IMG/VR virus record: IMGVR_UViG_2698536484_000002
Span: 1-10,383 of that record
Source: a virus
Lineage: Duplodnaviria > Heunggongvirae > Uroviricota > Caudoviricetes
DNA length: 10,383 nt
Direction: 5' to 3' (one strand)
Shown here: positions 1 to 6,000 of the stretch, piece after piece
How the letters are laid out: each line of letters begins with the position of its first letter
Position numbering within the stretch: the first letter of the stretch is position 1
Position numbers: made by a program

Positions 1-3000
1 GCCAGCGTTGCGAGTGCTGTACTCATCCGTTTTATACCTCTGAATCAATATCAACCTGATGGTGAGCAATGGTTTCAACCATGTACCGGATGTGTTCTGC
101 CATGCGTTCCTGAAACTCAACATCGTCATCAAACGCACGGGTAATGGCTTTTTTGCTGGCCCCGTGGCGTTGCAAATGATCGATGCATAGCGATTCAAAC
201 AGGTGCTGGGGCAGGCCTTTTTCCATATCGTCTGCCAGTTCTGCCTCTTTCTCTTCACGGGCGATCTGCTGGTAGTGACGCGCCCAGCTCTGAGCCTCAA
301 GACGATCCTGAATGTAATAAGCGTTCATGGCTGAACTCCTGAAATAGCTGTGAAAATATCGCCCGCGAAATGCCGGGCTGATTAGGAAAACAGGAAAGGG
401 GGTTAGTGAATGCTTTTGCTTGATCTCAGTTTCAGCATTAATATCCATTTTTTATAAGCGTCGACGGCTTCACGAAACATCTTTTCATCGCCAATAAAAG
501 TGGCGATAGTGAATTTAGTCTGGATAGCCATAAGTGTTTGATCCATTTTTTGGGACTCCTGGCTGATTAAGTATGTCGATAAGGCGTTTCCATCCGTCAC
601 GTAATTTACGGGTGATTCGTTCAAGTAAAGATTCGGAAGGGCAGCCAGCAACAGGCCACCCTGCAATGGCATATTGCATGGTGTGCTCCTTATTTATACA
701 TAACGAAAAACGCCTCGAGTGAAGCGTTATTGGTATGCGGTAAAGCCGCGCTTAGGCGGCTGATGTTTCTTCTTTCAGGCTTTCGAGATATTTACGTGGG
801 TCGTCGTAACATTGGCATTCGCTGTACCAATCCACCCAGCGATCAGTAAGCCCCATCTCTGATAAATCTTCATCGGTAAGGCTCTCATCCCACATCTCAA
901 GGCCGTTAGCATTGCAGTAATCAGGCTTGATGTTGTTGTCATACTGAAAGGCGTCATAATCAGCCAGTGCGTCCATCAGACGAACACCCTCTTCAACACT
1001 TGCCACTTCTACAATGAACGGCTTCATAGGTACTTGCGGGATATGCCAGACACGTAATTTCATATATCCTCCGTCAAAAAAATTGCCCTCACACTGGAGG
1101 GCAAAGAAGATTTCCAATAATCAGAACAAGTCGGCTCCTGTTTAGTTACGAGCGACATTGCTCCGTGTATTCACTCGTTGGAATGAATACACAGTGCTTA
1201 TTCGTACTAATAAAATACCCAATTTTCTGTTTCTTGGTTGTGTCCAAAGTTATATTCAATATCTGGTGTTGATGTATCAATATTCTTCATACCATCAACA
1301 AGAGTTGATACAACAGCCAAATCTTGTTTGATTCTCATTAAATGGTATTTCTTCCGGCGCAATAAACTTTCAATGGCAAGTTTCTTCGTTGGGAATGCAA
1401 AAGATCTTTCTGCATTTTTTGCTACTTTCTTAATTGCATATCTATTTCTCCTTTGTTTCCATTCCTGTAACCACTGATTTGGTGCTGGTTTAAAATTAAC
1501 AATCCAATGCGCAGGAACCAACCATGCATAATGCTCTGTCTGATGAAAAGCTATATATTGAAGTGCGAATATTTTTATCCCATCTTCTTCAACTGTCGCC
1601 TGGAATCTCCAGAAAACAGGCATTCCATCATGTTCAGTTTCTGATTCAGGAAAAGGTACGCTCCATGATTTTGTCATATCTCACCTCAAATAAGTGGTTT
1701 GCTGCCTAATTTCATTTTCTGGCGACCAACACAAGTCACCTCGCCGTCAGTTGTTTTGATTTCCGGTAGCCTGCCGCGTAAATGGCTACGTTTGGAAGAC
1801 ATACACCAGTTTCTGGTTGCTTATGTCCAAACTCATTCGCGTACACAATGGCCGCTCGCTCCAGATTGCGTCTGTATTCTTTCTGTTGCCAGATCACGTC
1901 CTGTGCCATGAACTTAATTGGCTTAGCGTCTTCTATGCGCTCAGGCGTTTCGTGAGTACCTTTAGCCTGAATCTGCGCTCTGCTTAGAGTAGGGCGGTGT
2001 AATACTTCTGAACTTATTGCTTCTTCGCGGGCCAGTACGCCGTTAGCTAATGCCTTTGCCTTTAAACGCTCACGACGACGAGAACGTGAATTGCCTTTGA
2101 ACTGAGTTCTGCGTGTCATATAGACCTCCTGATGAACTTTGGTGGTGTGGTAGGTGGGAGACCCATTTCGACCTGTTTCGGCCTACTTCAATTCGGCAAT
2201 AGTCCCGCAGGCCTCGCCGCTTTACGTGCGACATATGCCCGTCCATGAACCCTTCACCACACCCCAAAGTTCACTTTGGTTATTGCGCTTTGTCAGCGCC
2301 GTAGATTCATATTCGAATCGTTGTATATTCACCGCCCTGGTGAGTAATGCGTCCTGCTGACGACGATAATAATGAACCAATAGTTCGGCATTATCAAGAA
2401 CTATTGGTACGAATTTTGGTGATTTATTAACTCTACGAAGTATGATTCTGATATATAAGGAAATTTATTTTTGAAAATGTGGCTGATGAAGGTTATGCGG
2501 CAGGGATCATAACTGCATGGTTTAGCGAGTTACATCAATAAATACAATTGGTTATGTTTTTTAGGTGGGCGAACGTGAGGCAAAGAAAACCCGGCGCTGA
2601 GGCCGGGCTAGATTTTAAAGTATTTATCTTTTAGAGATGTAGATGTAAAACTTTTCGCCTTTGAAAATTTTTTGTCATCAGAAGGGCTTATGAACTCATC
2701 TTTTTTGTAGGGAACCGCTAATGCTGCATCACGTCTGCGAGGCAGCTTGCTTACTTCCTCGCGCTTTTTCATGATCAGTTATCCTTTAATAACCTATACA
2801 GTTTTGTAGGGGTACATCCTGAGGATATTGTTAAGTTCGTAGCACGCCTTTTCCGCCCATCATCGTATAAACGAAAACCAGTAGTAGACGAATTTTCTGC
2901 GTCAAAAACTATAGACAGTATAGCGTCCCCAGACTTTTTTTGCCATTCGCATGTGCCGTTAGTTGGTTTCGTCATCTGTAGACGCCAGTCAAGAACGCCA

Positions 3001-6000
3001 TCACTTATAGCTGAGAGATCGTTTAGTACATCTAGTACGGATTGATATCTTTCATTTGGATCTACATGAATGCATTTGTTCACTATTGTTATTAATTTTT
3101 TATGTATATGGGGAGGATACTCTTTTAATGGATAGCAGCCATTAATTATCGACTCTCTGAGTTGTTCAATCGTGCTAAATGCAGATCTTTCTCTTTCAAA
3201 ATTATCATGTCCAACACACATTCTATATATGGTTAATCCTGCCTGATATATGTCATATGTGAAATTATAATCATTTGTTGATAAAGAAAAATATTCCGGT
3301 AGCACATGAAAATGATATCCAAACTCAGGCGCAGCTCTCGATTCCTCATTGACTAACTGAGATAATCCAAAGTCAGATAGCATGGCCTCATTTCTGTTTG
3401 ATATCATAATGTTATTAGGTTTTATATCAAAATGCATAAGACCTTTTGAGTGTATATGATAAAGTCCACTTAAAAATTGAATGGAATACCGTATTATCTC
3501 CCTGCTTGTAAGATTATTTTTTTTCATTAATTGGTTTAGCGAACCATTATGATAAAATGGCATGGCTATATAGATATTGCTCTCACATTGAGCAGCATAC
3601 TGAACTTGCACAATATTTGGATGTGCATGTTTATAGAGAAGCCTTGCTTCATTAAAGTAGTCGTCGTGGTTAGTGTTTTCTTTTTTTTCTATTTCTTTAA
3701 TCACCAAGTCATGAGCTAGGTGTCTGTCATGAGCCAGATATACTTTTGAAAAACAACCCTGTTCTTCTAGATCACTAATCCATTCGAATTCTACATCAGC
3801 TCTTTTGTATGGAGTTAGCATCCCCTTACCTCCGCAGATAGTGCAGCCAAAACAGCTTCATTTGTTTCAGTTGTAAAACCAGAATTATCGATTCCATTTA
3901 TATTGCGGTGTGACTTCAATATTTCTTTATACTCGATCTCTGTTAGGTTCAATGATGATTTCATGCCAGATTTTCTAATAGTGTAATATTTTCTTACATC
4001 ACTGCTTGAAAATGCTTCTTGAATAACAGCTTCTATATAAAGGCGGTCAATGCTAAGATTATCAGAGTTTGATTCAGTAACGCGTATGGCAGCTAATTCA
4101 ACATTATATAAATTAAGAATGTCGAGGATGTTATTTCTCACATACTTTAATTTTTCTGGTGTGTCTAAGGTCGAAGGTATTTTAATAACATCAACACATT
4201 TGAGTGCAGACTCATTAGTGCAATATACAACAAAAGATGTAACTTTGGGCGCCGCTCTAACACCTAGTATTCTCATTTTTTATATCCTATTTTAGAATCA
4301 GGCCGCATCTCTGCGACCATCCATCATCCAAACGTCTCTTCACTCATCCGAAGAAGCAGCAATCCGGGTCAGCACGCACAAGCTCAAGCGCATCAGTCAG
4401 CGAAAGTTCAGTACTGTACTGATGCCATTTCATATCCTTCCGCATCCAATAGATTTTCCATCTATCCAGAGAACGTATGTACTTGATTCTTGCTGATGGC
4501 AGGATGTTTGTTTCACCTGGATTGCCCTGCCACACGGGGCGCTGTTCGCCGATATCTATCGTTTGGTCATTGATGCTATAAACAATATCCAGTTCATTGC
4601 GGATATGTTCAGGCGGCCTTATGCTTTCAATGAATTGGTGAACTTCTTTTTTTACTGCTTGATATTCAAGGTCATTGAACGCCATCTATCCTCCTTACCC
4701 AAACGTCTCTTCAGGCCACTGGTTACCAGCTATGTGACGATGAAGTCACGAACTTTTCAGCCACTCCCTTGCCTCGATGTCATCCAGATGGCGAGATTGC
4801 TTCAGAATACCAGCTACATACTCCACCTTTGCTACTTGATGATAAGGCAACGTTATAGGCCTGTGATCCTGGTTAATGCTTGTAAATTGGTATTCTCCAT
4901 CTCTGTCATAGCCAAGAACCTTAATCATGTTGTGTCCTTCAACGGTTCTGACAAACACCTCATCACCCGGGAATACTTTGGTGTTAGGCTCAATGAGTAC
5001 ATATTCTCCTGATTTTATTCTGGGCCACATGCTGTCTCCTTTCACACGAAGACCAAAGGCATCTGGATCATCGCTATAAATTTTGAGCCACCCATCGCGC
5101 TCTTCGGTCATCTCGATGGCACCATCAACACCAAGAATTGCCTCACCAACCACGCGCACTAACCCTTTTTTTAATTTGCCAACAAATGAAAGAGTATCTT
5201 CATCATTCGCTCCATTTAACGAAGTGCCGTGCTGAAGCCAAACAACATCAACGTTTAGAAATTTCGCAAGCGCATTCATTTTTTCCTGACGCGGTAAAGA
5301 CTCAGCATTAAACCATTTGCTAACGCCTTTGGACGAAAGAGAAAGGGCACGGGCTATAGCCATTCCCCTACCATGTTCATCAAGACCAGCTTCTTTACAG
5401 GCTTGCGCTAGCCGCTGGGCGAATTCTTTGCGCACTTTTTCATTCTGAACCATGAGTACGATACTAAAGCACTTGCAAAAACTTTCAGTTCAACCATAAT
5501 GCGTACTGAAAGTACGAAAAAGGATATTCCTATGCAAAATCTTGATGAGCCGATTAAAGGTGTCGGCATCCCTGAAGTTGCGAAGGCTTGTGGAGTTAGC
5601 GAAAGGGCTGTCTATAAGTGGCTCAAAAACGGCTTCCTCCCTAAGACTGAGTTTTTTGGGAAAACTAAATACGCATCAAAAATCGAAGAGATTTCTGGTG
5701 GCAAATATCAAGCAAGCGAAATGCTTGAAATAAGCAAAAAGAACCTTCTGGCTGCATAAGTAACACCGCTATTTTCACAATGGACATTCGTCCTACGTCG
5801 CTGACAAAGCGAGTCCCAATATATCTGACCAACTAAGGCCATATGCGTTTCCACGCATACCTTTCAACTAGCTATTCACTATTGGAAATCTTAAGAAATG
5901 GAACAAACAAGTTACAGCAAACTATCACAGCGAGAAATTGATCGCGCTGAAACTGATTTACTCATCAACCTGTCAACGCTTACCCAGCGCGGTCTGGCAA

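Follow-up and report, generated by a model that had tools for sequence, protein, structure and literature searches.

In lambdoid prophages, lambda RexAB and other accessory genes (morons) located between cI and N are carried on the pRM transcript and abort superinfecting phages, as set out in an excerpt of PMC3564112. Among prophage kinases that sacrifice the host cell to block a second phage, Stk of phage 933W is one of the oldest cases; it is carried by Shiga-toxin phages of E. coli O157. Excerpts of the literature describe Stk as a eukaryotic-like tyrosine kinase (PMC3681748, PMC6356687, PMC3564112 and PMC8008677, citing Tyler & Friedman 2004; Friedman et al. 2011, Mol Microbiol 82:567) that is co-transcribed with cI from pRM (PMC3564112, PMC3430580), has hardly any activity, if any, as long as the lysogen is uninfected, and causes HK97 infection to abort (PMC3681748, PMC3564112, PMC8008677). 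The exclusion of HK97 is ascribed in excerpts of the last three sources to infection-triggered tyrosine phosphorylation. The stretch of DNA analyzed here, termed the window (10,383 nucleotides (nt); positions 1 to 10,383 of IMG/VR record IMGVR_UViG_2698536484_000002), is the 10.4-kb immunity and early region of a 933W-type lambdoid Shiga-toxin phage, and the analysis concerns the C-terminal segment (the tail) of the Stk kinase encoded in it, together with a small partner gene that precedes stk. In the window, stk lies in the cI-to-N slot that is occupied by rexAB in lambda; the slot and the logic are the same, whereas the proteins and the mechanism of RexAB and Stk are unrelated.

Other Hanks-type kinases known from anti-phage contexts include PD-T4-6 of PADLOC and the MADS kinase MAD6, but, unlike Stk, these are not described as having a RuvC-like gene as partner. 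The best PADLOC matches of Stk were to mad6 (1.1e-47) and PD-T4-6 (5.2e-37), followed by weaker ones; these matches are catalytic (amino acids (aa) 20-295) and leave the tail uncovered. Stk falls outside both groups, in that the best PD-T4-6 match extended over aa 20-273, with models of 311-347 positions aligning through ~277, and the NCBIfam MAD6 model (NF047741) scored 120.4 bits against a cut-off of 460. The staphylococcal Hanks kinase Stk2, reportedly the subject of a study by Depardieu et al. in 2016, is said to stay silent until a phage protein activates it and then to phosphorylate broadly, leading to death or dormancy. Stk resembles Stk2-type abortive infection in outline, a likeness of function and not of sequence. 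To our knowledge, the non-catalytic region of Stk2 is unrelated to the tail of Stk.

The gene itself is already known. Around stk, a 2.3-kb stretch matches Escherichia phage JLK-2012 at 100% identity and 933W (AF125520, 9829-12129) at 99.9%, and the gene is 99.9-100% identical to the annotated stk of both phages (where it is called serine/threonine kinase), such that gene, protein and phenotype are those of 933W stk, by sequence identity and by synteny. Two features appear to be new: the C-terminal domain, which constitutes a family-specific fold unit without catalogued relatives, and the constant small partner gene. Neither the C-terminal ~75 residues as a domain nor the 153-aa gene as an obligatory partner is described in the excerpts of PMC3681748, PMC6356687, PMC3564112 and PMC8008677, and the primary Stk papers may discuss either. 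The features of the gene are the following.

2775..3821, minus strand: stk, encoding the 348-aa Hanks-type kinase (non-RD, "HFD") of 933W-type Stx phages (open reading frame (ORF), identity to annotated stk, Pfam Pkinase match).
3003..3821, minus strand: kinase catalytic domain proper, aa 1-273 (Pfam match, PDB kinase alignments, predicted last helix at aa 262-270).
3006..3044, minus strand: canonical terminal helix (alpha-I) of the kinase fold, aa 260-272, carrying N267 (AlphaFold model, PDB alignments, conservation).
2778..3002, minus strand: C-terminal accessory domain, aa ~274-348, about 75 aa.
2985..2993, minus strand: L277-D278-W279 anchor motif at the start of the tail (L in 70, D in 69 and W in 75 of 78 loci; W279 invariant in 117 sequences).
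2943..2945, minus strand: W293, a second near-invariant tryptophan, in strand 290-297 (76 of 78 loci; invariant in alignments A2 and A3).

The limits of the kinase fold were examined from the segment HVDPNERY (aa 252-259; nt 3045-3068), which is followed by 89 residues (nt 2778-3044) and the stop codon (2775-2777). A first-pass annotation of the window had placed a tail of about 90 residues at 2775-3060, which is accurate to within 5 codons. It had also let the recognizable kinase core end near HVDPNERY; the Pfam match does stop at aa 260, but this limit was set some 13 residues early, and aa 260-272 still belong to the kinase fold. The AlphaFold (AF2) model of the full-length protein, built with 117 homologues (predicted local distance difference test (pLDDT) 88.1; predicted template modeling score (pTM) 0.90), has a helix at aa 262-270, and solved kinase domains, e.g., those of PknB and an S. 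aureus kinase, match the family profile up to positions ~259-273. Taken together, these two observations identify the first ~13 residues of the presumed tail as helix alpha-I, which follows R258 of subdomain XI.

The remaining residues, aa 274-348, did not superpose on the C-lobe of solved kinases, whose alignment with the full-length model covered 235-267 (in one case 281) of the 348 residues. When predicted alone (75 residues, 63-sequence alignment), the tail took up the same secondary structure as in the full-length protein, with a pLDDT of 89.5 and a pTM of 0.75. Since the segment is predicted to fold by itself and solved kinases end before it, aa 274-348 represent a separate accessory domain. 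The earlier proposal is thus supported for these residues as regards a separate domain, which is predicted to fold alone and lies beyond the solved kinases, and its sensing or regulatory role is plausible; about 13 of its ~90 residues are ordinary kinase; the structure prediction that would have equated the tail with the standard end of the C-lobe does so for aa 260-272 alone.

According to the full-length model, the domain consists of a short strand (280-281), three long antiparallel strands (290-297, 300-307 and 312-319), a further short strand (324-326) and a C-terminal helix (338-347); strands and helix are predicted at a pLDDT of ~95, the exception being the loop 281-290. On the basis of these models, aa ~274-348 are an autonomous beta-meander plus one-helix domain, specific to the Stk kinase family. 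The confidence for the first 20 tail residues, which include both tryptophans, fell from a pLDDT of 82-95 in context to 77-78 without the kinase, a loss that in modeling terms fits an interface with the C-lobe, and the high pTM of 0.90 suggests a fixed arrangement of tail and kinase.

As the first-pass annotation had noted, the tail contains no recognizable motif: searched alone, it matched nothing in Pfam, PADLOC or NCBIfam. The sole family match that covers it is PHROG 2361, which is itself built from these kinases. A PDB sequence search with the tail profile gave a best E-value of 0.3 (spurious matches to Cas12X and L2), and a Foldseek search of BFVD yielded no relatives at E≤0.001. The closest fold neighbors of the model were the RWD domain of Kre28, EspG, PsiB, CdiI immunity proteins, cystatins and Vif. 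These are mostly protein-binding modules, a likeness of models that lends weak support to a recognition role. None of the resemblances was convincing, and the tail was assigned to no fold family. The KA1-autoinhibited kinase MARK1 (6c9d_B) aligned over 255 residues, but neither this nor any other of the structural matches covers the tail, and no counterpart among kinase-associated C-terminal regulatory domains of solved structure, such as KA1, was found in this comparison.

Conservation was counted over 78 non-redundant loci, and an alignment of 117 sequences was used separately. The segment that follows alpha-I is present in all 78 loci, at a length of 64-81 aa (median 72). In addition to the tryptophans and the L277-D278-W279 motif, the near-invariant positions include N267 on alpha-I (78 of 78 loci), I/V272 on the same helix and L345. 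A basic hairpin is partly conserved (G322 in 49, R325 in 37 and R/K326 in 64 of the loci). Otherwise the tail is highly variable. Its mean column entropy is 2.51 bits versus 1.55 for the core, its loops 282-289 and 308-311 are prone to insertions and deletions, and mean pairwise identity is 24% for the tail compared with 49% for the core and 43% for the partner. Among close pairs, in which the core is 13% diverged, the tail is 26% and the partner 16% diverged; tail divergence is thus about twice that of the kinase core. Within the phage collection, all of the stk copies are at least 99.7% identical.

Ratios of nonsynonymous to synonymous substitution rates (dN/dS; Nei-Gojobori) were calculated for the window and three enterobacterial copies that are 77-86% identical. 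The tail gave values of 0.13-0.34, compared with 0.01-0.12 for the core and 0.05-0.10 for the partner; all of these are rough owing to near-saturation of dS for most pairs. The tail is therefore under purifying selection, as expected of a real domain and not of a chance extension, although selection on the catalytic core is 3-10 times stronger. In all comparisons of this set dN/dS stayed below 1, with no indication of positive selection in the tail. From the conserved anchors, the drop in pLDDT without the kinase, the six-residue linker and the pTM of 0.90, we infer that N267, I272, L277, D278, W279 and W293 hold the tail against the base of the C-lobe, leaving the variable residues exposed.

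The distribution of the domain was analyzed with a tail-only profile, which matched 86 clusters at E≤0.001 among 1.84 billion representative proteins; 60 of these were inspected. All of the family-specific matches inspected lie at the extreme C-terminus of a Stk-family kinase of ~340-377 aa, or of an N-truncated or disrupted copy, with a recognizable kinase C-lobe upstream. Neither a stand-alone tail nor a tail fused to another effector was found among the inspected matches, and the search of the 1.84 billion proteins gave no convincing match outside the 933W-type kinase family. Short proteins that seemed to be stand-alone tails proved to derive from kinase genes that are N-truncated or disrupted, and one of these carries a fused fragment of an IS21-like transposase. 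About seven further matches with 4-7 matching stretches were long repeat proteins (two were inspected) and look spurious. The best 120 whole-protein homologues of Stk are nearly all 337-353 aa long. A tail-only hidden Markov model matched 87 of 88 loci, the lone exception being a Bacteroides kinase with a divergent tail of normal length.

The catalytic domain that carries the tail is of the Hanks type. Pfam Pkinase (PF00069) matched aa 21-260 (E=2.4e-45; 155.4 bits against a cut-off of 31.7), and the canonical residues are all in place, namely the VAIK lysine, the alpha-C glutamate, the HxD motif with its K and N, DFG, APE and the subdomain XI arginine. In the 117-sequence alignment K42, E58, H130, D132, K134, N137, D150-F151-G152, P175-E176, D190 and R258 are invariant. 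The catalytic loop reads HFD in place of HRD (aa 130-132; 3429-3437, minus strand) throughout the family, F131 being at least 90% conserved, and Stk is therefore a non-RD kinase. Kinases of this class are not known to depend on phosphorylation of the activation loop and are over-represented among eukaryotic innate-immune kinases.

Two variants of the protein were observed in addition. Stk of the window has L174 (3300-3302) and P68 (3618-3620), compared with P174 and S68 in P0001, the representative of a 579-member cluster; residue 174 is the position just before the invariant P175-E176 of the APE motif. A 220-aa form (P0013) that starts at the internal M129 and lacks the N-lobe has 330 member sequences in public assemblies; it represents a frequent disrupted allele or else an artefact of gene calling.

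The second new feature is the gene directly upstream of stk. Together with its neighbors it is located as follows.

4746-5453, minus strand: cI repressor, the leading gene of the leftward operon (Pfam HTH_3 and Peptidase_S24; cI in annotated relatives).
4344-4685, minus strand: DUF3024 gene, in the cI-to-partner interval (PADLOC candidate PDC-S43, 5e-42).
3815-4276, minus strand: 153-aa partner gene, labeled "RuvC-like" (PHROG 3875), overlapping the start of stk by 7 nt.
2608-2772, minus strand: 54-aa basic ORF, starting 2 nt past the stk stop (PHROG 4063).
2588..2609, minus strand: strong intrinsic-terminator-like hairpin (8 bp, 6 GC, with a T-run behind it), at the end of the cI-stk operon; the 54-aa ORF extends into it.
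1736-2119, minus strand: N gene.

Eighty loci from 80 species (Gamma-, Beta- and Alphaproteobacteria, Bacteroidota and Ignavibacteria) were retrieved and all of their six-frame ORFs searched. Each of the 88 loci has a homologue of the partner directly upstream of the kinase and in the same orientation (E-values from 1e-39 to 1e-72). In all but one locus the two genes overlap by 4, 7 or 8 nt or are separated by at most 12 nt; the overlap is 7 nt in L020 and 11 nt in L035, and in L086 the gap is 45 nt. Judged from gene order and sequence, Stk looks like one half of a conserved two-gene module with this RuvC-like gene of ~150 aa. The partner family comprises 152 matches, all of which are stand-alone proteins of 148-188 aa without a Pfam domain, and no fusions, to a kinase or otherwise, were detected among them. 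The family is absent from Pfam, PADLOC and NCBIfam.

The pair has been found in quite different surroundings. Salmonella and Klebsiella lambdoid prophages contain the cassette as well, and a P2-like prophage on a metagenome scaffold (L089, 2546-4214) carries all three genes (153 aa, kinase and 54 aa) beside gpD, gpU and tail-tube genes; its occurrence in P2-like as well as lambdoid prophages indicates that the cassette moves between unrelated prophage types. In Pseudomonas, the kinase is found in a setting that resembles a defence island (Abi_2, PRTase-CE, integrase) with no lambdoid genes, and a 152-aa gene again overlaps the start of the kinase. The DUF3024 gene and the 54-aa ORF are outside the conserved core of the cassette. 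In the window, the GC content at 2750-4250, i.e., over the partner and kinase cassette, is 0.32-0.38 versus 0.45-0.55 in the flanks, and such an AT-rich composition relative to the flanking phage DNA fits horizontal acquisition as a moron. The two-gene cassette extends across Proteobacteria and Bacteroidota, whereas the catalogues of defence systems register a generic kinase only.

The annotation of the partner as a RuvC-like Holliday junction resolvase (PHROG 3875, RefSeq) is not borne out by its sequence. Its score against Pfam RuvC was 14.2 bits, below the cut-off of 22.2 (E=0.042), and only 8 of 41 members of the partner family gave a Pfam RuvC match of any kind (best E=1.4e-4). The catalytic acidic residues of E. 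coli RuvC are D7, E66 and D138/D141. In the partner, a near-invariant R7 stands in the place of the RuvC D7, and its conserved residues (G5, P34, P40, L43, D52, the invariant E68, R78, E82 and E87) do not constitute the RuvC tetrad; a conserved C-terminal D..D pair was not found in the family. No sequence relatives of the partner were found in the PDB. The partner may have an RNase-H-like fold.

Given that Stk is silent until HK97 infects, activation by a phage signal must exist, and the tail, being restricted to the family, rigidly anchored and variable on its surface, is the best candidate for the recognition surface. Our preferred reading, held tentatively and at somewhat less than an even chance, is that aa ~274-348 serve as the module for recognition or specificity in an abortive-infection system of two genes, the ~150-aa RuvC-like partner and the kinase. 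A recognition or regulatory module would fit the family restriction, the conserved anchors in an otherwise hypervariable domain prone to indels, and substitution at 2-10 times the rate of the catalytic core; other abortive-infection proteins likewise combine a conserved effector with a fast-evolving sensor module. The tail would then serve both as the contact point and as a regulator of kinase activity. In the lysogen, the non-RD kinase would be produced from the cI operon and remain silent. Upon infection, a phage product, or the partner after engaging a phage product, would touch the variable surface of the tail, the contact would be relayed through the rigid anchor to the C-lobe, switching the kinase on, and the resulting phosphorylation would abort the infection. 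The domain and the partner gene thus offer two handles on how Stk stays silent and how it becomes switched on.

A more specific proposal is possible but, in our estimate, doubtful. Stk would not be a one-gene system; the pair would constitute a widespread anti-phage module that has so far escaped cataloguing, composed of a catalytically altered RuvC/RNase-H-like protein of ~150 aa and the non-RD kinase, with the tail as a hypervariable trigger surface that possibly reads a phage recombination protein such as the Erf-like gp41 of HK97, alone or with the partner. Friedman et al. reportedly mapped the HK97 trigger to gene 41. By the numbering of the HK97 record (NC_002167), gene 41 encodes an Erf-like single-stranded DNA-annealing protein. 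No link between gp41, HK97 and Stk was found in the papers searched.

Several considerations weigh against a recognition role. As dN/dS is below 1 throughout, the faster rate of the tail may reflect relaxed constraint on a small peripheral domain and not an arms race. The strictly co-encoded partner is an equally good candidate for the sensor, in which case the tail could be a mere docking site. Finally, mirror-tree and distance-matrix comparisons fail to separate the sensor model from the docking model.

The docking alternative, which we consider rather unlikely, holds that the tail never meets a phage component and instead binds the partner, whether as sensor, as inhibitor (antitoxin) or as phosphorylation target. 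The genetic arrangement speaks for it. Partner and kinase are an exclusive pair, with overlapping or abutting stop and start codons at all of the 88 loci. The partner occurs only as a stand-alone protein and the tail only on this kinase, an exclusivity that is expected of pieces that touch; furthermore, the pair travels as a unit between lambdoid prophages, the P2-like prophage and Pseudomonas defence islands. The evolutionary rates, however, do not match: mean identity is 43% and dN/dS 0.05-0.10 for the conserved partner, against 24% and 0.13-0.34 for the tail with its unconserved surface, and because the partner is so much better conserved, the variable surface is unlikely to be its constitutive interface. 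Moreover, the partial correlations of distances between tail and partner (0.29-0.47) are no higher than those between core and partner (0.36-0.48), and with the partner taken whole or as its N- or C-terminal part, all partial r values were 0.29-0.48. Nor was a partner-kinase fusion of the "Rosetta stone" kind found in the partner-family search, and profile-profile comparison of tail and partner showed no relationship.

The tail could also be a structural or oligomerization module, which stabilizes the C-lobe or mediates homodimerization for trans-autophosphorylation without any specificity for a signal. We regard this as distinctly unlikely. It would account for the hydrophobic and aromatic character of the conserved residues, which resemble a packing interface with the kinase, and for the pTM of 0.90, which suggests a rigid single body; dN/dS values below 1, with no sign of positive selection, are also compatible with a scaffold under low constraint. 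Nevertheless, such a cap is not needed by most Hanks kinases, the closest solved bacterial ones among them, and a scaffold would not be expected to be the fastest-evolving, indel-prone part of a defence protein and yet to retain a length of 64-81 aa and its fold across phyla.

Recruitment of substrates is improbable to a greater degree. Under this alternative, the tail would dock the host (or phage) proteins that Stk phosphorylates, and would thus govern the choice of target and not activation. In kinases generally, the GHI subdomain is a common site of substrate docking, and the tail, coming after alpha-I, adjoins it; in addition, the partly conserved basic hairpin (G322, R325, R/K326) could bind an acidic or phosphorylated partner. 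Host substrates, however, are conserved across the carrier Proteobacteria and Bacteroidota, which predicts a conserved docking surface, and the tail is hypervariable. That the tail is simply the ordinary end of the kinase fold, true as this is of helix alpha-I (aa 260-272), has next to no probability, since it is contradicted by the folding of the tail alone and by solved kinases that align over 235-281 of the 348 residues.

The genes of the minus strand follow one another in the order cI, DUF3024 gene, 153-aa ORF, stk, 54-aa ORF, terminator-like hairpin and N. Lambdoid prophages of E. coli and Proteus are the only setting in which the DUF3024 gene was seen with the kinase pair; it may represent a defence moron in its own right. 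The 54-aa ORF is confined to Enterobacterales copies of the cassette, with a dN/dS of 0.2-0.6. HK97 (NC_002167) carries a different two-gene insert, Gp48/Gp49, in its cI-to-N slot (4910-5814). Within the coding region of the tail, a promoter-like site (2946-2917, minus strand) was no better than the shuffled expectation, and no ORF of at least 50 aa was found opposite this region. Elsewhere in the window, a lambda cIII thermoregulator element (RF01804) gave a full-length Rfam match of 88.5 bits at 634-692 (minus strand). A 184-aa ORF at 9466-10020 (plus strand) contains the motif NNPPY, typical of N6-adenine DNA methyltransferases, as noticed in the translation alone.

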